This document shows positions 2,872 to 31,920 of a DNA stretch of 32,665 nt, in pieces. Source of the stretch: Catajapyx aquilonaris. Taxonomy: Eukaryota. Every line of letters starts with the position of its first letter. Position 1 is the first letter of the stretch. The position numbers and the translations under genes are program-made. The notes beneath the pieces are model-generated. The model saw nothing but the letters and a program-made list of their open reading frames with translations. It was not told the DNA's origin and searched no databases. The stretch spans positions 1-32,665 of the forward strand of contig JYFJ02004357.1 of the NCBI GenBank assembly GCA_000934665.2. The letters are read 5' to 3'.

Positions 2872-5800
2872 GTGAGTATTTGATAGTTGTAGAGGGAAGA
2901 ATGTGAAAGTTACTATGTTTATTTGGAGAAACAGATAGTGGCAGTGGAGCAGCTGCCGCGGGAGGAGGAGAAGGGAGCAGTGGCGGGCCAGGAAGCAGTG
3001 ACCCGTGGTCAGGAGCAGGAGGACAACACCTACATCATCCACCACCTCCACCTGGGTATCCCTCAGTAGCTGGTGCCTCGTCGGGCTACACTTCCATGAT
3101 GGCGAGCACTGCCCACCAACCGTACCCACCTCCTATGCACTTGCCACACGAGCCAATGGTGAGTAGTTTTGCTTGCATGAAGCTAGAGGTGGGGGCTAAT
3201 GGACAATGGCTAATGAGTGTTCTTATGTGTCAGGGCTATGTCCCTGCTGGTGGACTGTCCATGTCTCCTGTGGGACACCCCCACCAGCACCCTCACCAGC
3301 AAGAGTCCATGTCGCCTTCGTCCTCCTCGTCATCGCTTCTGGTGGCAGCGGCTGCGGCCACCAGTCTTCCTCCCATGTCCAGCTTCCGGGGAGGTGGAGG
3401 GGGAGGTGGGGGTGGCGCTGCCTCCTCCTCCTCCCCTCACCACAGTCCAGTGGCGGCCGGAGGAAGCAGCGCTAACCCGGCCAGTAGCCAGCAAGCGCCA
3501 CAGCCGTCTCAGCAGACTGGGGATGCACTTGGGAAGGCACTAGCCTCGGTAAATATGCTTTATGTAAAGGTAGCCATTGGGATTGTACAGAGAGAGAAAG
3601 AGACTTCCTTTTATGGAGTACTTGCATAAGCATTACATTGACAAAGGAGAGGCACCACTAATGTGGTGGGCTGATGTGATGATGTAATTTCTAACATGGC
3701 AAGGTATAGGGTTGGGCACATCTGTTGGGCACATTTACAGACTCAAAATCTTGCAAATGTGTCACTGCTTGCAGTTATTTTTTAAAGTTTGTGTCAAACC
3801 AATGATATTAAATTGTTCCTGGAATTTGTGAACCATAATTTAATCGCAATCCACAAATAGCACGCTTAATTTATACTTCTGCACTGGTTTGACTGCTTGA
3901 CACACGATACCACAGATTCTTAAAAATCATAAGTAGCTGTAAGCTTTCTGTCCAGTTTGTCCTGGTCCAGTGTGTCCCAGCCCGTAGAGGCAAAGAAAAT
4001 GCTTTTGCAAAGACAGCTTGACTGGAACGTGGAGAAGTGCGTGCCATAGTAGGGGATCGTGCTAGTAAGGGGCATTTGTAATAAATCTTTTTGGAGGACT
4101 TGTTGGAACACATTTAAACAGGCTTGGAAGGTGTGATGACATATGCATGACTCTTGCTATGGTTGGTGTTGCACCTGAGTAATACCTACTTTATGAAAAA
4201 TGCCAAAATTAACAATTGAAAGTTGCTTCTTACTGCCATGAACGTAATTCAGACATACAACAAAGTTTAAGTACAAAGATAGGAGGATATCATTACTACA
4301 GAGACATAAAAATAAAATGCATTTGTTACTACTGTAACATGATGCTGCAACTGAGATGTGCAGCAATAGGCTGTAAGACACCACGCAATATGACAGGGGT
4401 GGCCAAACTTACTTAATGTAAGAGCCAAATGCGATAAACTTCAGACACTGAAGAGCCGTGAGACATGAACAAATATTACAGAATTACACATACGTTTTTA
4501 TTGGTCTATGATCATTCTTTTGCAAATAAGGAGTACATTTATGATTTTATGATGTAGTAGTACATATTCATGCAAGTCTTTTTTACAAGTGTTGCTTTCT
4601 ATTAGTTTAAAAAAACATAGCGTCATAGTCAGACATCCCTCGTACATGTAAGATGCAGTGCATCATTTAAAAAAATCCTGCCTGATTATTATTTTAACTG
4701 CATAGAGCTATGAAATATGACAGCATGCCAAATATGGTAATGAACAACAGAAACATCCAAGATAAATTACACGAGACTTCCCAAAATTCTGTTAAAATAA
4801 ATTTTTGTAATGATGTTTATTTTGTCTCGAGAAACATATGCTTAAATCACGGAGGAAAATATGTAGGCTAAACCAATAAAATTATAGCTATTTTAATCAC
4901 CTTGCAAAAGTAGTGTTTCATCATAATACTTTCATGGAATTGAAATTAGCAGGTCGGAACACACAAGCCCCCTGTTGGCTCCCGATTTGATTATACATAT
5001 ATTACTTAGCATTAACTTTTTTACTCACCAGCAAAGGAATAACCCCAGTCAGCATATGTCCGAGAGCTGCACATGTAATGTCAAAGAGCCTCATGCGGTT
5101 TGGCCACCCCTGTAATATGATAAGCTATAGTTAGCTGCATAGAATGCAGTAATGTCACAGTTTATGACCACAACTTGGGGCTTTCGTGAGGGGGTAACCA
5201 CTTTGTGGAACCGGTGTACAGGGTCCCTGTGGAACCAGGCTGGAACCTGCTTGGAACCGGGCCGAACTAGTGTACACTTGTTTGGGGAGTGGTTACCCCT
5301 TCCCTACCTACCCATATTCTCCTGGAAAGGTCCCCTCATCCTCAGGTCAGCAGTAAATGGAAGAATGTCATGTGTTGGTGAAAACTGGACATGTTTCTAG
5401 AAACTGTGATGTTACTGCCACTTCTTGAGCTGATAACAAGAGATTTTATAACAAGGCCAGACACACCAATCTATTTTGGTTAATAATAATGTGTATGGGT
5501 ACAGATTGACTTTTCGTATTCAGAATGGTTGACTGCAGTTTGCAGGTCTACTTTTAGGGTGGAAACAATGCATGTGAACAGTATTCAATCTTGTGTAGTG
5601 CTATTGGGGATTTGGTATAGCAGGGGTCGAATTTTAAAATTTTTGTCCAGATGCAAAGTTTGCACTCCTGACTTTTATCTGGAGTGCAAATTACATACTT
5701 GGAGTGCTTAATTTTTTATTACTGGGTATTGCCATGTTTAAAAGCAGGACCAACTGGAGTGCAAACTTTGCACTCCAAGGATCAGTTTGGAGTGCAGATG

Positions 5801-8800
5801 GCAATAATGGGAGTGCAAATTGCTCCTTTGCATCCCGAATAATTCGACCCCTGGTATAGATCATACAGAAAGACTTTGAATACGAATTTGCATTTTCTGT
5901 CTTGTGCTGCCATCAGCAAGCCACAGATCTTGTGAGTATCATTTCTCATTATTTTGTCCACTTTGTGTACAGTACTTGTACAGTGTGTTGGATATTCAAA
6001 GAATCTTAGTAAAAGCAACAATTTCAAGAGTTAGTGATGTGATAAGCCATGTGAAGTAATTGTTACTGCAATGAGAGTCTGCAGTTGCAATTATGGTGGT
6101 AGTGATGCCATTTTTCTTTTTGCTTATTCTCATTCTCTATTTATGTGGTGGGCAACAGATTGAGAGTATTGTGTCACGTAATTTACCATATCAGAAGACA
6201 TTAATTTGATCAAGTAATGTAAGGTATTTTTTTGATATATGATATTAATAGCAAAGACTTCAGGTGTATTAAGAGTCAACTGGATGAAACTCACTTGCAA
6301 AATAATTGACTGACATAATTTGCCTCATGCAATTAGAGCATTCCACTTTTTTTCAAGGACCTGACTATAACATGTACACAACATGGATTTCCTTTGTGTT
6401 TGCCTTTGGGCAGAGGAAAAGTGTTTGGGGGGGGGCTCCTGATGATATGCCAAAATACCCCATAAAGATTAGGCATTGATGTTTTATCTTATGTCAGTGT
6501 GGCAGTCACTAGAAAATGCATCATTATTAGTCCCTACGCCTTTTTCAAATTTATGACTGAAATCAAAGCCTGCCAGATTGAAAGTTTTATGAGGATGCCA
6601 TCAGTTTCATAGCCTGCCAAACCCTCCTCTACAGGTACCATCTGGTATGGATATGATGAACAAGCATAAGCACTAGCCAAGGGAGGAAAATAAAAACTTT
6701 GGGTCTTACTTATCAAACAACTTGATTAATTTATGGCAGAAGGCTGATGTGGTTTAGTTTCTCAAGATTATGTTCCCTAGATGTGAAATATGCATATTCA
6801 CTTGAATCCTAAGTGTGAATATGACTTGAATTAGCAATTAACTGAGCTTTATGAAACCAGCTTTTTAGAGTGAGGAATTTTGACAGGTAGTGTTATTGCT
6901 GCCTCATGGCAGTCAGTGTCCTAAGCATAAACAGTACGGGGCTAGTTTTGAATTCAGCTTATCCATAAACCCACTACATGCGTTACTTTTGTCAGACACA
7001 TGTTCACCTTGACATTTTGTGCCAAAAATTTAACCTAAGAATAAAAGCAAGGCAATTTTTCAGTGGATATTAATTCAGTTTTGTATCATCACATTGATTT
7101 TGGCACAACCAAATGTTGGAGATGAAAATTTTCTTGGTAGAGACATGGCAGCATAATTAGTGGTTTACTGAAAACACAGCTATATGGAGAGGAGTCGCTC
7201 ACCCTTGGAACAAGATGTCAAAGTTTCAGATTTCTTGTTGGGAACAGGCATGGATGTAGTGACTTAAGGTGATTCAAGCTCAGCAATATGCAGTTGTGAG
7301 CATAATGATGGATGCAGCCTTGGGCAGGAGCTCAAATGAGTGGATATGTGGTGATGTTTCTTCCTCAATGTGAGAATATGTTTTTGGGTGGTAAAGTGTG
7401 TCACGATTATGGCGCCTAGTCACCAGTTTCTCACAGAACTCATTCGAGCTCCTTTCCAAGTCTGTCTTCTTCATTATGCTCTTGATTGTACTTCAAGGTG
7501 AACAAGGATCATCATCACCCCACCATCCTTTTTTAAGAGGAGGAGAGTCTGTTGCCATTACTAATTTTTGTGTATGAATGTTAGGACTTGCATAAACTGT
7601 TGACAAAAATGCCAAAATAATATTGGTAGTGGGTTTCTAGAATGTTTCAAGTGTTGTTTAGTGCCAGAAGCAGACCCTGTTGTTGCTTTAAAAATGGGTT
7701 TAGTTTCCTTTGGATTTCCTGGAGTCACAGTTTTAATGTCTCTCATTGGATACTTAGTTTATGATGCTGCCAGATGTGATGAAGTATGATATGGTACTAT
7801 AATGGGTTTTTGGTGACACAAGACATGCCATAGTTACTTTGTCAGAAGAGCCACTGCCTATTTGTAAGTTAGTTGAAGCCATGGAAAAAGAGCTGTTGAG
7901 CTTGTCACACCACTAACATGTATTGCATCGTTATGTTTATTATTATGTTTCATTAGAAATATTTGTACAGTGTGAATTAGGGCTTCATTCTGTAGTTATC
8001 TCTTGGCTGGAGATTCACTGAATACATTTGGATATGTCTTCATCCAGGGGGATGTTTCGTGATTTTGTTGAAGACATTCTGGGCCATTTGGTGTGCCTGT
8101 TACTGAATTATGATCAAATTGCCAGTGTTAGTAACAAAAATGACTCCCAACTTCGCTTTTCCAATAGATCTACTCGGCAGCAACTGATCAGAGCGTCAGC
8201 AGTGGCTCGAATCCTTCGACGCCAGTGAGCTCTCCCCCACCCCCACTGACCGTGGTGCCTCCAGGCAGTGGTGGGGGCACTGCTGGCCAGTGGGCCTCAT
8301 CTCAGGGAGGTTACCATCACCATCACCATGCAGGAGGCAGTGACCGAACTCTCCACATGGTACAGGCTGTCAAGCAATTTGTTCTTTACTCTTTAATTTC
8401 ACATAATTTTGTGACTTTTCTGCACAATTGCATGGGTTTCTTTTGCATCAGAAGATGTTTTTATTAATTATGTGTTGAACAGAGTATTACATTATTTGGT
8501 TTTTGCGTGCTGCTACCTTTTCTTGAGGTTTGGTGTTGTATTTTGTGAAATGCATTTACTTTGCATTGAAGGGCTGTTTTTCAGTTCTGGGAATTTTTAT
8601 AAAAGCAGCCATGCAAATATACTAGGTTTGCAGTGGTTTTACAGCCGGTGCTTAAGGAGTCTCATACCTTCTGACACTTGGTTTGGGAATGCCATGTGAT
8701 TGTGGGTTGGTAATTCCCAGGCAGGTGCAGGAGGTGCTTCTATTCTCTTTGGAACAGGTCTCTGAGATTATGTTACATGTGCAGTGGCCATGAAACAAGT

Positions 8801-11800
8801 GAAGCTGTAGGGTGTTAAAAGCATTTGTATGGACATGCCATTGGATTCACTATTGCTTTCTTGCAAACTCAATTCATTTACTGGAGTGAGGGGTTACCTG
8901 GGGAGATGGAGAAAGGAGAAGGAAAATCTGCCTTTGCCTTCTGAACTTTACTTTGCATGCTATTGTTAGAGGGTTTGTGTCCATGTAATTAAAATCAAAT
9001 ATTTCCTTCCTCCTTTCTGTGACTCACACTATTGGGTAATTGAGAAAGAGTTTCAAAAAAGTAATACCTCTCTGGGCCTCACAACACAAGTTGTATCATT
9101 CATCTTCCAAGGACAAGTTGTTCACATTAGGTCCTAGTCGACAATAACAGTCACAGTCCACGGAGTGGACAGAGCACAGATGGAACTGATGTGAATGACT
9201 CCAATATGTAGTACCCAGGCTAAAGGGATAGACACCACTGTGTCAGTTTGTGTTGAAAATTATTTCTTGTGAGGTGCTAAGAGTCTGGGTGGGATGGGAG
9301 GGTCATCAGGCAACACTGGTTTGAAACTAATCCATCAACATTGAAATATTGGAACCCAAACATTCTTTTACTTCTGTGCTGTCAACTTCATGCACCTTCC
9401 TACCCCAGACTGGAGCACCTACCATGACTTGCTTTCTAGCACAGATTGATACAAGGACACCGACTATGTTGGCCTGGGCACTACATCCTTGGGTAAATCA
9501 TGTTAGGCCGTTACTTTAGTGTGATAACAACTGTGGATGAAGTTCCCAAAATCTGGGAGATCGTGGGTTTACCCATTTTTCGAAAATAATTTGAACTTGA
9601 ATAATGGTTGTTGCGAAGTAATTGTGCTTAAAACTCAAAGCAGAGATACAATGTTATTTGGGATGAAGGATGGATATGATCCTGAGACCACAGCTTTCTT
9701 ACACACACACATCATTGGAACATTGTGATGCATGACCTCCCTAGGCTATCCTACCTGGCCTCTCAGTTAGTAACTTAAAGTAATGGTCAAGGTCCAATAA
9801 GGCTCTGGATTGAGGAAAACCTGGCTATGTCTGTCCTGGGCTTCCACAGGACTGATACAAACTATGTCGTCTCCCCTGGCCCTTCCAACACCCTAGCCAA
9901 CTCCCATTTAGTGGGTGTAGAAGGTGTCACAACATACAAAGTTGTGACAATTATTATTGCAGTAGATTTTGGCATCAATGTAAACCTTGTTACTGCCTGA
10001 ATTGACGATTATGAGGAACACTGTTGTATGGTCCTCATGCAGCTTTCCAATTATTCATCCCATCACTTCATCCTACTGACAGTCAGTGTGACAGGATACC
10101 TTCAGATACATTCACTAGCACCTCATTAGCAAATTGCACTGAAATTAAAATGAGATTACTCAAGTACCCTCTGCGGCAATTCCATTGTTCGATTCTGACT
10201 TCAGTTTCATGTAGAGACGATGTGGTTCAGTAACGTTCAACTAGTAGGTCTGCTGGAGGATATCATAAGTCATTCTGATCGTATTATTCACATATTCTCT
10301 TGCTAAACGTGAGCAATGTAGGTACAGTAATTCTTCGTAATTCAAGTAATATTTCTGTGGAATGTTTTGTTACATTGTGAAGGATATTTTAGTATGTTGG
10401 CTTAGATCCTCCTTTAACCAGAGGGTGTGTAGTATGCTTATACACTGTGCCAATAGTTTTATGGAGAGTAAAGCTATCTAAATGAAGCTAATGAACTGTT
10501 GTTGCCTCTTATACATCTAGAGGTAAAATATAAGCTCTTTTAGATGAATTTGTGTTCAGTCTGCAGCTTTAAGTGGTGACACTTCTTCCAAATTTGATGT
10601 TGCAAACCCTTTATAGGTAAATAGGAGGTTGTATTTTGGTCCTTATTAAGTAGAAGTGGCATGTCACACCAGGGAAATATGTTCATATCAACAGACCATG
10701 TTATTGAATTGCTGTGGCATTGTACTTGATGTCATAGTGATGTCAGTTTTTGTACCAACTGGTATGCTATTTTCTCAGAACAGTGAAGATGCAATTTTTC
10801 TGTGTGCAATGCTTCAAGTACCGTCAGGTGACAGTAGAGTGGTTGGCTAGGAGTTTCCACATTGCATTATGCTTGTCTTGAATGTTAACTCATATGATTC
10901 AATCCCTTGTACTTTTTGACATGATGTAGCATCCTCCAGACTACCAAAGGGTGCATTAGCCAATTACTGGCAAGTACCTCTTTAGGAGAGTAAGAAGAAG
11001 TACACGAGTACCATTACCAGGTTTAGTTGAAAGTGAGCAATGGGAGAAATTAAACAGCTGTACTTAGTGAGGTCAGGCTGATAATAGGGACGTAGGCACA
11101 CAACAATATTTTGATAAATTGTGTGAAAAGAATTAGCATTGAAAATGTTATGAAATGAATGTAATGAATTGGCAGAGGACTCTTTATGTTGGTCCACAGG
11201 CAGGATACTGTTATTCACGGAAGTGCCGGTGCATGTGTTTGACCATTATAACAAGGTTAATGAGGATGCTGAATATTTCAAGAAAGCTACGGCTAGTCCG
11301 ATTGGGATTTCGCTGGTGGTCTGGTATGACACTATTTGCTCATTGGCAATTTGATTAGTTTAATGAATGCTCACCTCTGAATGGATGGAGCAATAATTAT
11401 ATTCTATGCTTGTTTCAAGCACTGTAGTTGAGTGTGTTATATGGTCCATCTTTCTTTAAAAGGGCAGCTCTCACCCACCACCTTGTACGAATCTCACCCC
11501 TTCCAGACCACCCACCACAATAACTGAGTGGGTGGGATTCAGATAAGGCCATAATGGGAATCACATCTATTACAGCTATGTGTGTGACCAGGGGAGACAG
11601 TTCTTTAAACTAATGACCCTGGCTCTACATTATTTTAGTGTCTAGTAGTTAAGGTAGACATTAAATATGTGGTTTTTACTACATTGGTCAATTGCTGGAA
11701 GCAGTCACTCTTTTGTTGCACAGTGTATGTCACAACTCATTTAATTCTTCCCATGATGCTGCTTGGTAGAGAAATTCAGAGCACTGTAAGGCTTAAAGCT

Positions 11801-14489
11801 TGCAGTTACTAATGGTACAGTGTTGGACATTAATCGAGGCATACTGCTAGGGCATTTTCTGAAGCGGCAGGAGAAGGAACCGAAGATAAGGATATTGCAA
11901 GTCGGGCGAGCAAGATTCCTTCTTCTGCCGCTTTGGAAAATGTCGCTAGCAGTACGCCTCGATTAATGTCCAACACTGTACCATTATCCTACATATGTAT
12001 CTTACATACAGTGCCAGTACATAATATGTGGGCAACATGTTTTATGTTGGGAAAAGTTTTGGATGCATATATTCTTTTACTATGCATCATCTGCACCAGC
12101 AAGATGAATTATTTACAGTGATAGGTTGCATTTGTGGAAAAATAAATAAATTTGGACTCAGAATTCATTGGAGAAAATGTGTCTGAAACAGAATGTTGAA
12201 CGGAGATGTCAGGGCAGACTTGACTCCTGCAGCACCTGCGCTGGTCTTTTATCAAACAATGCATCCTTCCAGGAATGTTGTGCATGTGTGTGTTTAATTT
12301 ATTTGCATTTTTGTTTCTTTTTGTTTGGTCGACACAACAGCCAGTTCCTGAGCAACAAAGCTTAGATGACGCTATAGGGCTTCTCAGAGATCATGCAGAG
12401 GTAATTATAGTTGTTTTTGCTGTCAAGTGACAGCATTAACTCTGCTGCATGTTTTTTAAACGTTCCGAAACTCTTGACATCCGAATAAGCCAGTATTAGA
12501 TGTGGTGATAAAAATGAGTTGTGCATCTTGTGTCTTCATATTATTCAGCTACTATGATTTTTTCCCTGTTTACTGCATGAATTGTTGAAGTGTGTCAGGA
12601 GAAGTGAGAATTCTCCATCTTACCACGATGCAGCTGATATGTATGAAGAGGTTCAGGTCACATGTGTTGCACACTGTCTAACTAGCTCTTGACACCAATA
12701 GTAAGGAGCACCTGTGATTCCAGGGGACACGCATGGAGGAGGAACGACTAGATGATGCCATTAATGTCCTGCGCAACCATGCAGAGAGCCCTCATCAAGT
12801 GGCAGCAGCTGTAGCAGCGTCTCTCCATCACCATCAGGTAGGTTCGCAAAAAAGTGTAAGGGTTGCTTGTTGTACCACAATTAACGATGGCAACACTAAT
12901 GTTCCTGCAGGGCCATGCCCACCCCCACCCTCATGGCCACCATCACCACCTGCAGCAGGCACATTCCAACGGCATCTTGGTGGCTCCCTACCATTCGGCT
13001 GGGCTCGACACGCACCACATGGTATTCGTTGTTTCTGGCCATGTAACCATCCTTGTCCCCTGTCTTGGTTCCACTCGTTCTGTATTTTGTTGCCTGCCTG
13101 CAGTGGACGTTTCTGTCCTTCTTTCGTTTTTCTTTTTAAACGAGCCACCTGCCAGTCTGCTGTGTATTTTGAAGTTTTGGTGCATGATTCACATGGCCAT
13201 TGTGTGGGAGTAGTGATTTATTTCTCTGGTGTTAGTCTTGTTTCCAACACTGCATGTCCAGCATGGTTATCCATCTGGTGACCCTAACAACCCAACCTTA
13301 TTCCTGGAGGTGTGCTGTATATTTCACAGTTGAGCGCTTGGCCTGAAAATTGATTGATAGTGTTTAATTGCATCTCTCTGTGCTTTCAGCCTAGCCCTGG
13401 GGGCACTTCAAGTGCAAGCTTCACGGGACTAGCTCCACCACCACCACCACCACCTCATTCAGCATCTCAAGCAGCTGATACCACCTCCAGCACAAGTGAA
13501 GGAGGACCCTCTAAATTGGAGCAACGGCCAGGTGGAGGAACCAGTAAGTCAACTTTGGTGTGAATGATCTTGCACTTAGAGGATAGCTGGCTTGACTCAG
13601 GTAGTTTCCCCCCCTCCAGAGAAGCGAAAGGAACCACCCGATGCCTCACTCAAGTCAGAATCGCAGCAGCTGGGAAGTGGAAGTGGAAGTAATGATGATG
13701 GAAGTGGAGGCAGTGGAGGGAACCCCTCTGCTGGCTCCTCTTCCACTGTGCCATCCAAAAGTACAAAGAGATCTCGCCGGTAGTAAGTTGCTATTGTCTT
13801 TGGTTTGTGTAGTGGTATCCCCACTTGTTAACAGAAAGGCAGCTGACGGTTGTCTGGGCGTTAAATAGCGATCTTGCTTCTAGTGCTGACGAGGAAGAAG
13901 ACCCTGAGATCAAGGCACAGAGGGAGAGAGAAAGGAGGCAGGCTAATAATGCGCGGGAAAGGTGAGAAAGTGTCTAAAAGGGTAAGATGTAATGTGGCTA
14001 ACCCCATTCCTCCTTAGGATAAGAATCCGAGACATTAATGAAGCCCTGAAGGAGCTGGGAAGGATGTGCATGCAACACCTCAAAACAGACAAGCCTCAGA
14101 CCAAACTGGGCATTCTCAATATGGCTGTCGAGGTCATCATGCAACTGGAACAGCAAGTCAGAGGTGAGTGTAGTTGGTTTTATGGCATGGGACATTCATT
14201 ATAGGACATTATTAATATTATGCACCTCCCACAGAGCGGAATCTCAATCCCAAGGCTGCTTGCCTGAAACGTAGGGAGGAGGAGAAGGCCGAAGATGGAC
14301 CCAAGATGGCACCACACCATTTGGGCCATCCGCCACCACCACCACATGTAGGAGCCACCTTTGGTTCTGTGCCCGTAAGTGTTAGTAGTTGAGAGGCAGG
14401 TGGCTTCCAGGTGAGCTTGTGACTAATGCCCTCTCTCCCATTTGCAGACTGCGCAACAACCCCCTGTGCCACATGGCCAGCCGCAGTAG
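2775..14489 (+). CDS. da: Daughterless / class I bHLH E-protein (TCF3/TCF4/TCF12 family), 5'-partial, spliced. Exons: 2775-2871, 2935-3158, 3234-3548, 8168-8359, 12341-12400, 12724-12837, 12911-13021, 13390-13543, 13620-13782, 13869-13961, 14018-14163, 14235-14374, 14448-14489
   Basis: Spliced translation gives E-protein hallmark motifs: [15 protein letters not shown]...[24 protein letters not shown], b[80 protein letters not shown]. All introns are GT-AG and the phases are compatible (1851 nt, stop TAG 14487-14489). No N-terminal start exon recognised in the window. Confidence 0.95.
2935..3158 (+). CDS. da: da exon (DSGSG...SSDPWSG...HEPM)
   Basis: Acceptor aaacag, donor ATG|GTGAGT, SDPWS motif typical of E-proteins, in frame with neighbouring exons. 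Confidence 0.8.
3234..3548 (+). CDS. da: da exon (GYVP...[10 protein letters not shown]...[12 protein letters not shown])
   Basis: Conserved LPPMSSF and [12 protein letters not shown] motifs, acceptor tgtgtcag, donor TCG|GTAAAT. Confidence 0.92.
4394..5112. mobile_element. hAT-like non-autonomous DNA transposon (MITE)
   Basis: TIR CAGGGGTGGCCAAAC / GTTTGGCCACCCCTG, 8-bp TSD CAATATGA/TAATATGA (7/8), subterminal AGAGCC repeats. Confidence 0.85.
5191..5299. mobile_element. Small MITE-like element
   Basis: Inverted ends GGGGTAACCACT / AGTGGTTACCCC and internal GGAACC repeats. No clear TSD. Confidence 0.5.
5621..5853. mobile_element. MITE with perfect 13-bp TIRs
   Basis: CAGGGGTCGAATT / AATTCGACCCCTG flanked by direct GTATAG on both sides, with several internal GGAGTGCAAA repeats in both orientations. 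Confidence 0.82.
8168..8359 (+). CDS. da: da exon ([27 protein letters not shown]...DRTLHM)
   Basis: Acceptor ttttccaatag. IYS...[10 protein letters not shown] is the motif that follows ALAS in E-proteins. 192 nt, phase 0/0. Confidence 0.92.
11818..11978. mobile_element. Tc1/mariner-type fold-back MITE
   Basis: TA|CAGTGTTGGACATTAATCGAGGC... / ...GCCTCGATTAATGTCCAACACTG|TA with ~60-bp imperfect inverted arms. Confidence 0.85.
12341..12400 (+). CDS. da: da 60-nt candidate cassette exon ([20 protein letters not shown])
   Basis: Long U-rich tract then caacag acceptor, GAG|GTAATT donor, phase 0/0. The peptide is a clear paralog of [13 protein letters not shown] in the next exon. Confidence 0.85.
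12724..12837 (+). CDS. da: da exon carrying the loop-helix/AD2 motif ([21 protein letters not shown]...)
   Basis: Acceptor gattccag, donor CAG|GTAGGT, conserved LDDAI.VLRNHA. Confidence 0.93.
12911..13021 (+). CDS. da: da His-rich exon ([21 protein letters not shown]...)
   Basis: Acceptor ttcctgcag with ctaat branch point, donor ATG|GTATTC, phase 0/0. Confidence 0.8.
13390..13543 (+). CDS. da: da exon ([10 protein letters not shown]...PPPPPPP...GGT)
   Basis: Acceptor tgctttcag, donor A|GTAAGT, phase 0/1. Confidence 0.82.
13620..13782 (+). CDS. da: da exon (KKRKEPPD...KSTKRSRRY), NLS-like basic patches
   Basis: Acceptor ccccctccag, donor TA|GTAAGT, phase 1/2. Confidence 0.82.
13869..13961 (+). 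CDS. da: da exon, acidic patch plus bHLH basic region ([28 protein letters not shown]). Alternative acceptor at 13884
   Basis: Canonical E-protein basic region, donor AG|GTGAGA. Confidence 0.92.
14018..14163 (+). CDS. da: da exon, HLH domain
   Basis: [17 protein letters not shown]...[24 protein letters not shown], acceptor cctccttag, donor G|GTGAGT. Confidence 0.96.
14235..14374 (+). CDS. da: da exon, C-domain ([18 protein letters not shown]...)
   Basis: Highly conserved E-protein C-domain, acceptor cccacag, donor CCC|GTAAGT. Confidence 0.95.
14448..14489 (+). CDS. da: da terminal coding exon ([13 protein letters not shown])
   Basis: Branch point ctaat and acceptor ctctctcccatttgcag, in-frame TAG. 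Confidence 0.75.
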   Translation, partial: TAQQPPVPHGQPQ

Positions 14490-16734: not shown

Positions 16735-17030
16735 TTTTTTATATTTTTTTATTTATTGTTACCCCGTGCTCGAGCCATTCGGCTCGTTTTGGGGGGAGGG
16801 GAAGGTTTCCCAGGGGCGGTTCCTTGGTTTATAGTCACTCACAACTCTCTCGGATACACCAGACTTTTTCTCTGGCCCCGGGCAGCTAAGGGAGTGCAAT
16901 GCTGCCCCGGCGTGTCGGGTGAAAAGCGGAAAAAGACCCAGCCAAGCAGAGGTGACGGGGACGGGATTTGAACCCCGGCCTCCCGCTTGGCTAGCCAGTG
17001 GCGTAACCACTAGACTACCATGCCGCCCTT
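16735..17030 (-). mobile_element. tRNA-derived SINE (family A, copy 1)
   Basis: Minus-strand tRNA head with A box (TAGTCTAGTGG) and B box (GGTTCAAATCC), A-rich tail, 17-bp TSD AAATAATAATAATATGT at 16718-16734 and 17031-17047. A homologous copy lies at ~24.5-24.9 kb. Confidence 0.9.
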
Positions 17031-18288: not shown

Positions 18289-18515
18289 CAGTGCCGGATT
18301 TACCATTAGGCAGAAAGGCAATTGCATAGGGGCGGCTGCAAAAAAAACAACAACTGGGATATAATTTAAAAAACAACAACATAAATTTACATAAAAGAAA
18401 GAACACAAGAGAAAAATTGAATTTGTAAGGGGCATATGGGGGAGGAGGGGTGGATCTTACGAGCCTAAGGGCGGCTGGGGGGGGGGGGTGTATATCCGNT
18501 GTATATCCGGTGCTG
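18289..18515. mobile_element. hAT-like MITE
   Basis: Imperfect TIR CAGTGCCGGATTTA / TATATCCGGTGCTG and perfect 8-bp TSD GTCATCAG (18281-18288, 18516-18523). Confidence 0.85.
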
Positions 18516-22446: not shown

Positions 22447-23559
22447 GTCGGGCTTGATCCTGAATAAATCTACCATCCAGCCAAGCAGACAAGGCCCTCT
22501 CAAGATGCAGTGGAAGCCACCTGCTGATTCCATCAGATCCAATTAGGTATTTTCTTGCAGGTCCTATTTGTGGTAGGCAGTTCATTGTTGTTCCGTAGAT
22601 ACGCCACTGATTGTTGCCCAACAATTAATGACAAGTGTTAAATTGCATGTACTGTTCTATCCCATATCATATGTCTGAAGGTGAGGTAGCATCGGTGCCT
22701 ATAGCGGAAAGGAATGATGGGCACATTGGCACGGCCGGAGAGAATCACCAGAAGAAGTAACATGACCAAGATGGAATGATATATCTTACAACGACTGGAT
22801 GGGTATGAATTCAATATATATCAGAATGGGCTGTCTGGTACCCGATATATGCCAATACACTCATGCTGCTGGGTTATGACCGATGCCTCCTCAGCCTGAC
22901 ATGACAAGCTTTGTAAGCCGAGCCCTTTTTCTGCCAAATGTTGGTCAGTACATTGCCTTCATGAGTCAGGGTGGGTTTCTTGGATTCTATCGAGGTTTGC
23001 CTCGTATCCCCGACAGAATCCAAGAAACCCATCCTGACTCATTATGAAGCCAATGTACTGACAACCATTTGGCAGAAAAAGGGCTCGGCTTACAAAGCTT
23101 GTCATGTCAGGCTGAGGAGGCATCGGTCATAACCCAGCAGCATGAGTGTATTGGCATATATCGAGTACCAGACAGCCCATTCTGATATATATTGAATTCA
23201 TACCCATCCAGTCGTTGTAAGATATATCATTCCATCTTGGTCATGTTACTTCTTCTGGTGATTCTCTCCGGTCGTGCCAATGTGCCCATCATTCCTTTCC
23301 GCTTTAGGCACCGATGCTACCTCACCTTCAGACATATGACATGGGATAGAACAGTTCATGCAATTTAACACTTGTCATTAATTGTTGGGCAACAATCAGT
23401 GGCGTATCTACGGAACAACAATGAACTGCCTACCACAAATAGGACCTGCAAGAAAATACCTAATTGGATCTGATGGAATCAGCAGGTGGCTTCCACTGCA
23501 TCTTGAGAGGGCCTTGTCTGCTTGGCTGGACGGTAGATTTATTCAGGATCTAGCCCGAC
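22447..23559. repeat. ~1.1-kb near-perfect palindrome (inverted repeat, arms ~545 bp, spacer <=18 nt)
   Basis: 22447-22992 is the reverse complement of 23011-23559 with about a dozen differences. The ORF track shows the same peptide on both strands (22415-22624 minus, 23382-23567 plus). Confidence 0.95.
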
Positions 23560-24505
23560 TCTTGTGAAAATTTTAAAAGGCTTAGTAAAACCTTTAGTTG
23601 ACTGTAAATTTGGAAGAATACAGTGAATTTGGTTGGATCAGGGTTATCATGATGAAGCAATTTAAATTAAGCCTGAAGCATTATAGTATTTCAAAGGAAA
23701 GAAAAATAGGAAGAAATTATATACCAACTACAGTAGGGGTAAGCTAACTTTTGGGACTTGGCTTGTGTCCTTGGCGACCATAATTAGCCCCGCCCCTTAC
23801 CATTTACGCTAACGTATAAAAAATTCAAGAAAGGTCTAATTTTCAGCCCCTTCCAAAATTTCGCGGTTTCCTTTCTTCCCGCGGTATTGCGCAATATGGC
23901 TGAAACTTGACACGTACGGTTATACGTCATAGGTACGTTCAGCTGTGATTTATTTCGGCAAAATCCGAGATGATCTAGCAACTTCGATTAGGAAAGACCA
24001 CCTATATTTTGATGACTTTGGTTTTCTGACTGTCCCAAGCTAAAAAAAAAGTTCAGACAAAATGAATCGTCATTATGAGTTACGAGTGCCCTTACATAGT
24101 AGGCTATATAATAAAGATCATACATCTAAAGAAAATTATATTTTCACTCTCCAAAGAAAGCTCATTGACTTTAACAGAAAGTGCTCACTGGCACCTCCTT
24201 CAAGTGGCGCCCAGGGCACGTGCCATGCATGCTATACCTTAGTTATGCCACTGCCTGGACCACCAGTCAGTAGAAGAAGGTTCTTTTCACAAGTGATTTG
24301 AAGTTTGAAGTGTTTGAGTCCAACAGGACTATTCCGTTGGTGTATGAAATTAATGCGTGTATGTCATAAGAAAGCCTGATAAAGGGGATGAACTGGGTGC
24401 CAACAATTCCTGATGTCAATGTTCAGACCCTAGTTGTTCAGAGGTTTGGAAAAAGGAGCTAGTTTAGGATTTTATGTGGTCTTGTGCAAGGCTGAAAAAT
24501 TCCCC

Positions 24506-24544
<39 letters not shown>
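24506..24544. repeat. (AAT)n microsatellite (SINE tail)
   Basis: Read directly. Confidence 0.9.
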
Positions 24545-24889
24545 TGGGTAGTGCGGACCTCATTCGAGGTATTGCACGGACCTTTATTTATTTTGCAATT
24601 TTTACATACAGTTTTTTTTCGTCGCAACGCCCTGGTCCACGGGCGTATGGGGAAGGGTAGCTTCCCAAGGGAGGGCGCTCTCATGTAGTTTCTAGTCATT
24701 GCAGACCCTCTTAAACACCAGACCTTTTCTCCTGGCCCCGAGCAGAGAAGGGAGTGCAATTCTGCTCCGGCATGTCGGGTGAAAAGCGGAAAAAGACCCG
24801 GCCAAGCAGAGGTGACGGGGACGGGATTTGAACCCCGGCCTCCCGCTTGGCTGGCCAGCGGCGTAGCCACTAGACCACCATGCCTCCCT
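24507..24889 (-). mobile_element. tRNA-derived SINE (family A, copy 2) with extended 3' end and (TTA)n tail
   Basis: Strong similarity to 16790-17028 across head and body, (AAT)n at 24506-24544, TSD-like AAAAATTCCCCA / AAAAAATCCCCA flanks. Confidence 0.85.
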
Positions 24890-25030
24890 AAAAAAAAAAA
24901 AAAAAAAAAAAATCCCCAGTGGCCCAGTGATGCATCAGATTCTTGTTACATATAAATAATTTTTTGTTTTTTGTTTCCAACAGTGATTTCTAACAATTAA
25001 TAAATTGCTCCAATCACACTCTTAAAAGTA

Positions 25031-26127: not shown

Positions 26128-28284
26128 ATGGCACGTGAATTCCTGCCCCTCTGTGACGTATTATTTAATATCATCTCTCTGGCACTCTACTTTTGCGATG
26201 TGGTATTTGATGTCCTCACAGCATACACACTCTATGAAGAAGGACGTGAGCTACTGGCTGTATTGGCCTTGGCCCTCGTGAGTTCTTCTTTGTTGGCCAG
26301 TCAAGCTTTTTCTGTCTGGCACCACATACAGAAGAATAGTGCTGGGGACAATGATGTTGGTGTACCTGGAAAGGTAGCAGTGGTTTTTATGCACGTTATT
26401 CAGTGTGGTGTTTTGTGGCGTTACTTTAAACTGTTTGTCCCAGTCCATTTTTGTCGAGTGAAGCGTGAAGTGCGGGACTTGTGTGTGTTGCGCTTGCTGC
26501 ATGCATTTTGTGAAGCGGCACCCATGCTTTTGCTGCAGTTGTATGTTGTAATGCAGAAAGAGTCTTCTGGTGAGATTACAGATCTAAACCTGGTGTCCAC
26601 AATACTCTCACTCTTTAATGTGTGTTGGGCATTGGCATCATTTAGCAAGTATGTCCAAAGACATAATGTCCATCGCTTGGTGCTGACATGGCTTGGAGTG
26701 CTGTCCCAGTTCCTGTGGCGACTAGGCACGGTCACATCGCGAGCCGCAGCACTCACTGTATATGCTGTAGTGTATGGTCACTGGTTGTTTCTTGTCCTTG
26801 GGTTACACTGGATCAGCATGTTCCTGTGGCTCATCTCACCACGCAATGTCTTTCGCAGTGAGGACACGGGGTTCTCAAGAACAAGATGGGTTGCATCCTC
26901 GGGTCTGGTTGCTTTTATCTATATATTTTGCTATGTTAATGTACAAGAAGTGAATTCCAGGCAAAAGATTGTAGCTTATTATATTACAATGTTTTTGGAA
27001 AATTCTCTCTTGATAGCTGTATGGCTGGTAGGCATACATAGCGATGCTAATGTGTGGTACAGAGACTTTATTGTGATTTCTGTGTTCGCTTCGTTTGGAA
27101 TAGGCTTAATTTTTATGCTTCTGTACTACCGTTACTTTCATGTCAAGAGACTGAAGTATGTCCAAACCACCTCAAGTAGTTTTCAAAGCCAGGTGCCCCA
27201 TGGAGATGGAGAGCTTGCCAACTCTCCTTCATTGTCAAAGACAGTAAATGTGCCATCCAGCAGAATTGAAGATCCCAAGTTACTTGCAAAGAAGACATAT
27301 GGACACTGTCGACACAGTCACACCAATGGTGATCCACCTTTGCTGCCGCCATATGTTCCAGGTGTGTTCAGTTGTAGATTCAATCCTGCCATGAAGCGAA
27401 AAAAGAAAAAACCAACTTCATTTGTGCCACCTCCTATCCCTGTTGTGCCGTCATTGGGGCCAGTTACTGATGGACGGATGCTCGAGCCATTTTGGAAGAA
27501 ACCCTTGCCCCCTGCAAGTGCTCCAAGTGAGAATGAGAGCAGCGTTGGCTCCAGAGTCAACATCCAACAGAAGTTACGAGAGAAGAAGCAGCAGCAATTG
27601 GCTAAGCTGCGAATGATAGAGGAGGAGATCAGGCAGGGAAAGTTGAAACGACCCAACCCCAGTGACATATCAGACTCGGGGACATTACGCCAACCCATTC
27701 CACGTGCCAAGAAGCAGCCATGGGTATATTCTGATCCCTTGCATGTGCCTTATGTGATGCCGCCACTGCACAAGCAGCGTTCCCAAACACCTGAAATTCT
27801 CCTCTCACCCCAGTACCTGGAGAATGCTTTGGCATATTATGAGACTTTTCGTGACTTCGATTGGAAGTTTGGCATGCCTTACACTCATGACTTGGACCAA
27901 TATTGCAGTGGAAACAATTACATGGGCTTTTCCCAGAGAGAGGAGCGTCCCAGCAAGAATGTGGACAAGAATGTGTACAAATCGTACCGTATCCCCTCTG
28001 ATTTAGATAGTCAGATATCACTTCCAAGATCATACACTCTTCCCCGTGAATTTAGGTACCACAGGAAGTTGAGGCCAAGGAAAACTGTTCGATCCGACCA
28101 TTTTGTGCCTTCAACAAACTCAAGTGATGGTGACGTTGATTCAGCAGAGGACAATGATGCTGATGTGCCTTATGAAGATGAAGAGCGTGTACTTCGACAT
28201 TCTTGTTTGGGAAGGGGAGCCAATGTGATAGGGGGAGGACTAGCCATGACCGGAAGGAACAAACTGCATGAAACAAAATTGTGA
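26128..28284 (+). CDS. XK-related (XKR) multi-pass membrane protein, putative phospholipid scramblase, with long cytoplasmic C-terminal tail. CDS has no introns
   Basis: 718-aa ORF with strong start context (AACATGG). N-terminal ~340 aa hold multiple hydrophobic helices and XK-family motifs (YFCDVVFD, LRLLHAFCEAAPMLLLQLY, FLWRLGTVTSR, MFLEN, FMLLYYRYFH). C-terminus ETKL. Probable upstream splice acceptor at 26010-26011 (tatgcttcag). Confidence 0.93.
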   Translation: MAREFLPLCDVLFNIISLALYFCDVVFDVLTAYTLYEEGRELLAVLALALVSSSLLASQAFSVWHHIQKNSAGDNDVGVPGKVAVVFMHVIQCGVLWRYFKLFVPVHFCRVKREVRDLCVLRLLHAFCEAAPMLLLQLYVVMQKESSGEITDLNLVSTILSLFNVCWALASFSKYVQRHNVHRLVLTWLGVLSQFLWRLGTVTSRAAALTVYAVVYGHWLFLVLGLHWISMFLWLISPRNVFRSEDTGFSRTRWVASSGLVAFIYIFCYVNVQEVNSRQKIVAYYITMFLENSLLIAVWLVGIHSDANVWYRDFIVISVFASFGIGLIFMLLYYRYFHVKRLKYVQTTSSSFQSQVPHGDGELANSPSLSKTVNVPSSRIEDPKLLAKKTYGHCRHSHTNGDPPLLPPYVPGVFSCRFNPAMKRKKKKPTSFVPPPIPVVPSLGPVTDGRMLEPFWKKPLPPASAPSENESSVGSRVNIQQKLREKKQQQLAKLRMIEEEIRQGKLKRPNPSDISDSGTLRQPIPRAKKQPWVYSDPLHVPYVMPPLHKQRSQTPEILLSPQYLENALAYYETFRDFDWKFGMPYTHDLDQYCSGNNYMGFSQREERPSKNVDKNVYKSYRIPSDLDSQISLPRSYTLPREFRYHRKLRPRKTVRSDHFVPSTNSSDGDVDSAEDNDADVPYEDEERVLRHSCLGRGANVIGGGLAMTGRNKLHETKL

Positions 28285-31728: not shown

Positions 31729-31920
31729 GCAGGTTGGCATAGTGGATAAGGCGTCCGATTGCCAATCGGGAGGTCCTGGGTTCGAATCCCGGGGCCGGCA
31801 ACCTTGACCGTGGGACACTCTGTAATGACGCCGCCGGGTGGGGGGGTTGTTTACCTTTCAAGGGCGCGAGCAAAATACTATAACAATCCGACTTTGTGGG
31901 TGCTGAGTCACCATCTACTA
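31729..31920 (+). mobile_element. tRNA-derived SINE (family B). Head 31729-31800 resembles tRNA-Gly(GCC)
   Basis: A box TGGCATAGTGG, anticodon arm TCCGA-TTGCCAA-TCGGG, T arm CTGGG-TTCGAAT-CCCGG. The acceptor stem is mismatched, no T-run terminator follows, and a GC-rich body continues downstream. 3' end approximate. Confidence 0.65.

Follow-up and report, generated by a model that had tools for sequence, protein, structure and literature searches.

Organization of the E-protein locus

The window, a 32,665-nucleotide stretch of Catajapyx aquilonaris DNA (contig JYFJ02004357.1, positions 1 to 32,665 of the forward strand), carries a class I bHLH gene of the E-protein type, the orthologues of which give Pfam HLH matches. 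Gene models nearest to its exons are those of springtails. An XK-related gene, whose nearest clusters are from arthropods, adjoins the E-protein gene. Transcript evidence came from two run sets of spliced contigs, one derived from the same species (X2, 0 mismatches), the other from a relative (X1). The features read in the gene are the following (exon in capitals, intron in lower case, exon borders marked by a slash):

2935..3158 (+), upstream coding exon (spliced contigs, frame check)
3234..3548 (+), upstream coding exon (spliced contigs)
8168..8359 (+), upstream constitutive exon, 64 codons, ending ..DRTLHM and followed by gtacag (spliced-contig joints)
12300..12340 (+), 3' splice region of the cassette exon, a T-rich tract ending ...caacag (direct sequence reading)
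12341..12400 (+), cassette exon, 60 nt, phase 0/0, 20 residues, putative second copy of the AD2-1/LH-type helix
12401..12408 (+), 5' splice site of the cassette exon, GAG/gtaattat
12724..12837 (+), AD2/LH exon, 38 codons, preceded by ...ttccag (spliced contigs)
12911..13021 (+), second cassette exon, His-rich, 37 codons (translation, spliced-contig joints)
13390..13543 (+), coding exon (contig joints, frame check)
13620..13782 (+), coding exon (contig joints, frame check)
13869..13961 (+), coding exon with the basic region (contigs, frame check)
14018..14163 (+), coding exon with the helix-loop-helix (contigs, frame check)
14235..14374 (+), coding exon (contig joints, frame check)
14448..14489 (+), terminal coding stretch, stop codon at 14487-14489 (contig joints, frame check)

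The cassette exon is located between the exon ending ..TLHM at 8359 and the AD2/LH exon (12724-12837). Its borders read ...tttgtttctttttgtttggtcgacacaacag/CCAGTT...GCAGAG/gtaattat (12341-12400, forward strand), with an AG acceptor and a GT donor; pyrimidines make up a fraction of 0.53 over positions -20 to -4 of the 3' splice region. The upstream, cassette and AD2/LH exons are each a multiple of three nucleotides in length and of phase 0/0, and the reading frame is open through the bHLH region to the stop codon, with or without the 60 nt. The encoded peptide fits the type [PA].PEQQ.LDDAIG.LRDHAE. Frame preservation, AG and GT splice sites and a location between a ..[IL]HM exon and a G[TS].. 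exon of a class I bHLH gene are the features of arthropod E-protein LH duplicates, and all are found here. The initial annotation had proposed a 60-nt phase 0/0 exon encoding 20 residues at this site, the skipping of which would keep the frame, and had placed an LDDAI-type helix beside the canonical one. Splice sites, translation, the reading of the coordinates and the comparisons given below bear out these points, and 12341-12400 is confirmed as a genuine exon.

Conservation in arthropods and beyond

A 40-residue read-through translation of the window stretch, used as query, gave one match among five candidates, the Allacma fusca protein P0005. Residues 255-274 of this protein lie at the equivalent position and are identical at 19 of the 20 cassette residues, a likeness far beyond chance. 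The AD2/LH exon has 22/24 residues identical in Allacma; the 64-residue upstream exon aligns with the same protein over 25 residues only, 16 of which are identical. Cassettes in hexapod proteins annotated as transcription factor 12 / daughterless (Allacma fusca P0005, Ooceraea biroi X3 P0008, Zootermopsis X5 P0026) match the window in position and length, share 16-19 of the 20 residues, and are flanked by ..[IL]HM and G[TS].. as well. There are differences: after QQ the window carries S instead of R, as do Allacma and Nilaparvata, and it has GLL for GFL; some insects have 2-3 extra residues at the junction (LVQ, AT, VN, VI), and the window has no such alternative site.

The two units occur in tandem in all of the 120 matches listed for a search seeded with the cassette, a figure biased to unit-bearing isoforms as the query was the cassette itself. 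The second motif, L[DE][DE]A[IVLM], is strict in 116 of these matches and variant in 4. Orders represented among the 120 are Collembola, Hymenoptera, termites, Hemiptera, Orthoptera, Phasmatodea, Neuroptera, Coleoptera and Trichoptera. A search with the canonical exon alone retrieved 29 matches, 9 of which are short fragments; the unit is found in 13, and absent in 7, of the 20 full-length proteins. Many RefSeq insect models carry the cassette, and the exon is thus not unannotated in general.

A profile search of 1.84 billion representatives yielded 264 matches at E<=1e-3, 150 of which were listed and 30 of these named. The 30 named matches add Lepidoptera, Diptera, a mayfly, a louse, a barnacle, ostracods and a stomatopod, as well as mites, a centipede, an abalone and a nemertean. 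The unit is diverged in crustaceans, mites and the centipede; the abalone and nemertean proteins feature an LH-like unit at the cassette position. No clear helix unit was found at the cassette site in the chiton Liolophura, the tubeworm Ridgeia and the whelk Nucella. P0269 and P0272 are fly-like proteins without the unit. P0181, P0191, P0257, P0259 and P0264, bacterial-type repeat proteins with 5-11 matching stretches each (e.g. EQGRIDNAIAVVRPHAEA), were read as unrelated helical-repeat proteins and set aside.

Relation to the canonical AD2/LH helix

The canonical unit of the window and the Allacma cassette have 11 of 17 residues alike. At the DNA level, cassette and canonical unit of the window share 32 invariant columns out of 60; most synonymous sites differ between them, which argues against recent gene conversion here. 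Among the 120 hexapod sequences used for training, the canonical unit occurs in a single, invariant form, the cassette in 20 variants.

The 50-residue tandem was modelled by AlphaFold2 with a mean pLDDT of 83.5 as two helices, spanning residues 7-23 (pLDDT about 90) and 26-49, with a break at the exon junction. The AD2-1 peptide of E2A, EDHLDEAIHVLRSH, binds KIX with a Kd of 17 uM, and the changes L397A, I401A and L404A make binding 5-6 fold weaker (PMC4066744). Where this KIX-binding helix has Leu397, Ala400-Ile401 and Leu404, the cassette likewise has L, A-I and L, so that the hydrophobic L..AI..L pattern is found on the predicted helix. The extra helix may accordingly be a candidate for co-activator binding, as far as can be inferred from sequence. 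Pfam Ank models gave no match at E<=1 in P0008, P0277, P0005 and P0185. The arthropod cassette and the vertebrate insert discussed below match none of these ankyrin models, and both are predicted to be helical.

Comparison with exon 15 of vertebrate TCF12/HEB

Exon 15 of TCF12/HEB is a 72-bp exon, encoding the 24-residue 'ankyrin-like' insert of HEB-beta/REB-beta (PMC5852603, PMC3346973, PMC13231128, PMC12699894). It is optional and in-frame, and it borders the AD2 helix exon on the 5' side (..SLHSL / insert / QSRMEDRL..), as does the arthropod cassette. Positions were compared at the protein level, by aligning P0277 (Balaena) and P0267 (Crotalus) with the window; the exon status is taken from PMC5852603. 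The insert peptide and flanks given in the initial annotation match both vertebrate sequences, and the correspondence in position holds at this level. The insert resembles the LH helix and, like the arthropod cassette, contains EQQ, FL and D. In contrast, lengths do not match (24 residues, or 72 nt, vs. 20 residues, or 60 nt, in the window), a 4-residue indel being required, and the insert has moved much further away from the canonical helix than the arthropod cassette has. In the Crotalus fragment model the insert lies inside one long helix (residues 77-132).

HMMER aligned the Balaena and Crotalus TCF12 proteins in one stretch (profile positions 11-44), and the 14-mer of the insert falls on the cassette unit. 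With BLOSUM62, the same 14-mer obtains 35 when compared with the consensus of the hexapod cassette and 24 when compared with the canonical consensus, a value of 35 being reached by none of 100000 shuffles. With single-sequence HMMs like pairs with like: the insert obtains 10.2 bits with the cassette model and 6.6 with the canonical one, whereas the values for the vertebrate canonical unit are 15.6 and 21.5 bits, respectively. The HMM built from 20 hexapod cassettes gave the insert -0.6 bits, a score reached by 284 of 2000 shuffles, and did not pick the insert out of full vertebrate proteins. Cassette-only and canonical-only hexapod HMMs rank the two units in the order opposite to the symmetric test, and are not comparable because trained on 20 unique rows and on one, respectively. 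Position, HMMER co-linearity and like-to-like single-sequence profiles moderately support homology between cassette and TCF12 insert.

What is known of exon 15 effects on DNA binding and dimerisation, of its neuronal bias and of its repression by PTBP1 and QKI relates to vertebrates only. Rat REB-beta is reported to have lost DNA binding and dimerisation, according to citations of Klein et al. 1993 (PMC13231128, PMC12699894); the idea of an extra KIX helix does not predict such a loss. Specificity of the exon for the neuronal lineage and its repression by PTBP1 in glioma are described in PMC12699894; in T-ALL, the exon is included more often upon QKI loss (PMC13231128).

Single or repeated origin of the exon

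Orthology of the arthropod cassette and TCF12 exon 15, the HEB-beta insert, is the reading to which these sequence comparisons incline, by a modest degree. Alternatively, the two exons may not be orthologous, the AD2/LH exon having been duplicated or gene-converted repeatedly at the same intron, so that the shared position would reflect the mechanics of tandem exon duplication. This reading is less likely but a serious rival, and several data fit. With single-sequence HMMs, the canonical unit is a better match than the hexapod cassette for the first unit of Haliotis (12.1 vs. 7.1 bits) and for that of Strigamia (10.4 vs. 7.3 bits), Haliotis keeps the canonical MEERL start, the deep cassette profile gives the vertebrate insert the negative score reported above, and no unit was seen in Liolophura, Ridgeia and Nucella. 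However, EQQ, an F in front of L and a D following R/K, which are specific of the pancrustacean cassette, recur in the vertebrate insert, the vertebrate canonical unit carries canonical-specific residues, and the symmetric profiles pair each with its counterpart; the synonymous differences between the two window units likewise leave no room for recent conversion here.

An origin of the cassette before the protostome-deuterostome split is plausible, because an LH-like unit is found at the same spot in the abalone and the nemertean. The initial annotation had suggested an ancient bilaterian duplication. Conservation, likeness to AD2/LH and the abalone and nemertean units agree with it; a single origin is the part which the Haliotis and Strigamia scores and the -0.6 bits do not sustain. 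There is about an even chance that exon 15 of TCF12/HEB is not ankyrin-like but a diverged orthologue of an optional exon common to Bilateria, one which arose as a tandem copy of the co-activator-binding AD2-1 helix. Helix switching would in that case have lasted for more than half a billion years, the arthropod version representing the ancestral state.

Optional use of the exon

The cassette exon can be skipped. The skipping junction 8359->12724 is present in one spliced contig each of X2 and X1, as is the joint 3548->8168 in spliced contigs of both sets. Annotated isoforms that lack the unit come from at least six species. They include isoforms of Microplitis, Cotesia glomerata and C. typhae, and 1/11, 1/5 and 1/7 isoforms in Oratosquilla, Phlebotomus and Cimex, respectively; one Microctonus gene model also lacks the unit. 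In wasps, Cimex, Phlebotomus and Oratosquilla, the annotation of one species comprises both kinds of isoform. A second switch may be seen in the neighborhood, both included and skipped forms of the His-rich exon (12911-13021) being assembled in X2 contigs (joints 12837->12911, 13021->13390 and 12837->13390).

No contig of the two run sets covers 12341-12400, but Logan contigs lose minor isoforms, and missing cover is no evidence of absence because rare forms are those lost. Inclusion in the mRNA of this species is inferred. The splicing switch put forward initially is supported by the skipping contigs and by the isoforms of both kinds annotated elsewhere; the included form was not seen in the contigs of this species. 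That the exon is a silent relic in this species, no longer spliced into mRNA, would account for a skipping junction found alone in two run sets, and is nevertheless improbable: neither the splice sites nor the frame is broken, no conserved residue has been lost, the contigs tend to lose minor isoforms, and an unused 60-nt stretch would not remain 19/20 identical to a springtail, given the diverged neighbor exon. Constitutive use, with no switch, is hardly tenable; the unit is included in most annotated isoforms (Oratosquilla 10/11, Phlebotomus 4/5, Cimex 6/7), but X1 and X2 contigs join 8359 straight to 12724, and unit-free isoforms are annotated in the species mentioned above. A chance open frame within the intron, for which only the shortness of the exon and the missing read cover speak, is practically dismissed by the Allacma match at the equivalent position and by the presence of the unit across arthropod orders.

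Taken as a whole, 12341-12400 is probably a conserved, frame-preserving cassette in an E-protein (daughterless/TCF12-like) gene of bHLH class I, by which the protein would toggle between one and two helices. Inclusion would set 20 residues directly before the AD2/LH activation helix. As these residues would be an old copy of that helix, splicing would determine whether the protein has one co-activator-binding helix or two side by side. Alternatively, the two forms could be viewed as a short and an N-terminally extended AD2 helix.

Implications

A full-text literature search retrieved no paper in which the vertebrate insert is connected with the AD2 helix or with an exon of invertebrates, though Klein et al. 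1993 or Parker et al. 2006 may contain an earlier remark. TCF12 exon 15 is a subject of current interest. The papers cited above still denote it as 'ankyrin-like', and in one of them its consequences are said to 'have not been extensively explored'. The locus also illustrates that a 60-nt exon missed by ORF scans can be recovered through cross-species conservation. If exon 15 is a copy of the KIX-binding AD2-1 helix, a concrete biochemical hypothesis follows, in which the extra helix would bind KIX, SAGA or ETO. If exon 15 has a strongly conserved counterpart in arthropods, genetic models would be at hand in which the exon could be deleted. The arthropod cassette, almost invariant in hexapods, would then be a tractable system to address the role of the human exon.

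The E-protein gene and its cassette exon

The plus strand of the window holds a class I bHLH gene (an E-protein, daughterless/TCF12-like), the exons of which are closest to springtail models. The exon set was defined by spliced contigs from two public runs, of the window species (X2) and of a relative (X1), with splice sites and frame checked.

Exons of the E-protein gene, from spliced contigs except for the cassette (sequence and translation)
2935-3158, plus strand, exon
3234-3548, plus strand, exon
8168-8359, plus strand, exon upstream of the cassette, ending ..DRTLHM
12341-12400, plus strand, cassette exon, 60 nt, phase 0/0, 20 residues
12724-12837, plus strand, exon downstream of the cassette (AD2)
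12911-13021, plus strand, optional exon, 111 nt, 37 residues
13390-13543, plus strand, exon
13620-13782, plus strand, exon
13869-13961, plus strand, exon, basic region
14018-14163, plus strand, exon, helix-loop-helix
14235-14374, plus strand, exon
from 14448, plus strand, last coding stretch, stop at 14487-14489

The cassette resides in a 4.4-kb intron (8359 to 12724), with junctions ...tttgtttctttttgtttggtcgacacaacag/CCAGTT...GCAGAG/gtaattat (slashes mark exon borders). The initial annotation had placed a 60-nt phase 0/0 exon between the ..TLHM and AD2 exons and held that skipping keeps the frame; sequence and translation bear out both, the frame being open through the bHLH region with or without the 60 nt. 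A second frame-preserving cassette, 12911-13021 (plus strand), lies just past the AD2 exon, and X2 contigs carry it included (joints 12837 to 12911 and 13021 to 13390) and skipped (12837 to 13390). Introns 2872-2934 (63 nt) and 3159-3233 (75 nt), on the same strand, are both very short and removed from an apparently continuous 240-codon open frame (2907-3629); both lengths are multiples of 3, so that the frame is kept if they are retained.

Conservation in hexapods and origin by duplication

As the 20-residue cassette peptide is too short for a protein search, the unaltered 40-residue read-through translation of 12308-12427 was used. It found one protein among five candidates, a bHLH protein of the springtail Allacma fusca, where the cassette is identical at 19/20 residues and sits at the same position. 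Just 25 residues of the upstream 64-residue exon aligned to this protein, 16 being identical; the cassette is thus far more tightly conserved than its neighbour and, judged by this conservation, is a real, conserved exon.

A second search, with Allacma residues 236-300, gave 297 matches at E<=1 among 318 candidates; its query contains the cassette, which biases the result to cassette-bearing isoforms. Among the 120 matches listed, all feature tandem LH-type units and 116 the strict second motif, and the first unit is variant in four (LDDVI in two Folsomia isoforms, FDDAI in Halyomorpha, LDAAI in Schistocerca). In the consensus of these matches the cassette, [PA]APEQQRLDDAIGFLRDHAE, stands ahead of G[TS] and 18 residues; they come from Collembola, Hymenoptera, termites, Hemiptera, Orthoptera, Phasmatodea, Neuroptera, Coleoptera and Trichoptera. 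In many Hymenoptera isoforms, with or without the cassette, the AD2 exon opens with three additional residues (LVQ), and beetles, caddisflies and stick insects have two (AT, VN or VI) past the cassette (related proteins P0035-P0099, P0136, P0139 and P0140). These additions resemble the use of alternative 3' and 5' splice sites that lie a few bases from one another.

The canonical unit, the AD2-1 helix of exon 12724-12837, shares 11/17 residues with the cassette. In the DNA alignment of the two window units 32/60 columns are invariant and many synonymous positions differ; the copy is therefore old and free of recent homogenisation. Over 120 hexapod training sequences the 17-residue canonical core is invariant; the cassette core occurs in 20 variants.

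Optional use

One contig in each of X2 and X1 joins 8359 straight to 12724; X2 contigs show no mismatches to the window, and those of the relative are roughly 90-95% identical. This shows that skipping occurs and that the cassette is not constitutive. In these two runs, whose contigs drop minor forms, none covers 12341-12400, and the small depth in the cassette bin equals what would come from the initial 12 bases of the following exon by themselves. Predicted annotations of insects and of a mantis shrimp include both forms. The cassette is present in isoforms X2, X7 and X12 of Microplitis mediator, X6 of Cotesia glomerata, and X1 and X4 of Cotesia typhae, and missing in X8 of each (annotation labels, unrelated to the contig sets). 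It is found in one of two Microctonus gene models, and in 10/11 Oratosquilla, 4/5 Phlebotomus and 6/7 Cimex isoforms. A search with the canonical exon only gave 29 matches, nine of them short fragments; of the 20 full-length proteins, 13 have the cassette and seven lack it.

Wider distribution

From an alignment of 13 protein segments (A1), a profile of 50 positions was made for the tandem region and run against 1.84 billion representative proteins, giving 264 matches at E<=1e-3, of which 28 reach E<=1e-10 (150 listed, 30 of those named). A first LH-like unit directly precedes the canonical one in Lepidoptera (Papilio, Eumeta), Diptera (Phlebotomus, Megaselia, Condylostylus), the mayfly Neocloeon, the louse Menopon, Cimex, the scale insect Parthenolecanium, the barnacle Amphibalanus, the mantis shrimp Oratosquilla, the ostracods Darwinula and Cyprideis (the latter from a separate, canonical-exon-seeded search), the mites Leptotrombidium and Medioppia and the centipede Strigamia, and, outside arthropods, in the abalone Haliotis rufescens and the nemertean Tubulanus. 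The proteins found by the profile in the chiton Liolophura, the tubeworm Ridgeia and the whelk Nucella lack a clear unit at the cassette site, Liolophura having just a 7-residue optional piece there. The 30 named matches include no deuterostome invertebrate and no cnidarian. Five long repeat proteins (P0181, P0191, P0257, P0259, P0264) have 5-11 LH-profile stretches each (e.g. EQGRIDNAIAVVRPHAEA), a helical-repeat motif resembling the E-protein LH helix, presumably by convergence.

Comparison with exon 15 of vertebrate TCF12

TCF12 exon 15 is described in PMC5852603 and PMC3346973 as an optional 72-bp exon encoding a 24-residue 'ankyrin-like' motif. The profile search retrieved three insert-bearing vertebrate proteins (P0277, Balaena mysticetus; P0267, Crotalus horridus; P0224), which read ..SLHSL followed by insert and canonical stretch (47 residues); the insert peptide, length and flanks given in the initial annotation are all confirmed by them. 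In the HMMER alignments these proteins cover positions 11-44 of the tandem profile in a single stretch, with 14 insert residues falling on the cassette's RLDDAIGFLRDHAE. With BLOSUM62 this 14-mer gets 35 when compared with the hexapod cassette consensus, a value reached by 0/100000 shuffles, and 24 with the canonical one; for the vertebrate canonical unit the values are 46 and 59, respectively. Symmetric single-sequence HMMs give the insert 10.2 bits against the cassette (0/5000 shuffles) and 6.6 against the canonical unit (4/5000), and the vertebrate canonical unit 15.6 and 21.5. By these comparisons the vertebrate insert is significantly LH-like, in the same place as the cassette.

The tests of unit identity are mixed. 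One ancient origin of cassette and insert is the more economical reading, and the one we lean towards. Repeated duplication or conversion at the same intron, a less economical account, would fit the 20-sequence hexapod cassette HMM, which gives the insert -0.6 bits (reached by 284/2000 shuffles) and does not pick it from full vertebrate proteins, as well as Haliotis and Strigamia, whose first units match the canonical unit better than the cassette in single-sequence HMMs. Against it stand the insert's higher BLOSUM62 and single-sequence scores with the cassette, and its unit-distinguishing residues, which are cassette-type (EQQ vs MEE, F vs V, D vs N).

The 'ankyrin-like' reading is not supported for either exon. 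Pfam finds no ankyrin match at E<=1 in ant, whale, springtail and abalone proteins, HLH alone being above cutoff. AlphaFold2 models point to plain helices: 7-23 and 26-49 in the arthropod tandem, interrupted where the two exons meet (mean pLDDT 83.5), and one long helix, 77-132, enclosing the insert in a Crotalus fragment (block pLDDT 83-93, whole-model mean 56).

The cassette is already in many automatic insect annotations, and is no new database object; the window adds a member to this set, from a genome where the ORF scan missed the exon. In full-text searches, which did not take in Klein 1993 or Parker 2006, three points appear unreported: the link of the arthropod cassette to exon 15, the reading of exon 15 as an AD2-1 copy, and the near-invariance in hexapods.

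Other features of the window

A 516-nt inverted repeat (22447-22962 / 23044-23559; arms 98% complementary, 81-nt spacer) is a foldback-type element. A single 718-codon open frame (26128-28281, plus strand) encodes an XK-related (PF09815-type) membrane protein, with arthropod clusters nearest in Atlas, and ARAGORN detects a tRNA-Gly(GCC) at 31729-31800 (plus strand). The near-identical minus-strand translations of 16759-17028 and 24472-24945 (..TPLASQAGGRGSNPVPVTSAW..) suggest a dispersed repeat. An ambiguous base at about 18480-18500 (X in translations) is an N in the assembly.

Proposed function

According to PMC4066744, the MLL/PCET site of CBP/p300 KIX is bound by the human E2A AD2-1 peptide EDHLDEAIHVLRSH with a Kd of 17 uM; L397A, I401A and L404A weaken this interaction 5-6 fold, and affinity tracks transcriptional activation. 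The three hydrophobic positions are all kept in the cassette (L-D-D-A-I-G-L-L in the window; L-Q-D-A-M-S-F-L in the vertebrate insert). In our best reading, inclusion would supply a second co-activator-binding helix beside AD2-1, or a longer AD2 helix, and may alter co-activator avidity or partner choice.

Reported vertebrate phenotypes are the following. E-box binding and dimerisation are reduced in rat REB-beta (Klein et al. 1993 as cited in PMC13231128, PMC12699894); HEB-beta goes up in myogenic differentiation, and its loss lowers MyoD transcriptional activity (PMC5852603); exon 15 is included in neuronal lineages and repressed by PTBP1 (PMC12699894) and by QKI (PMC13231128). Not all these phenotypes are predicted by a simple extra-KIX-helix model; they do show that the switch matters.
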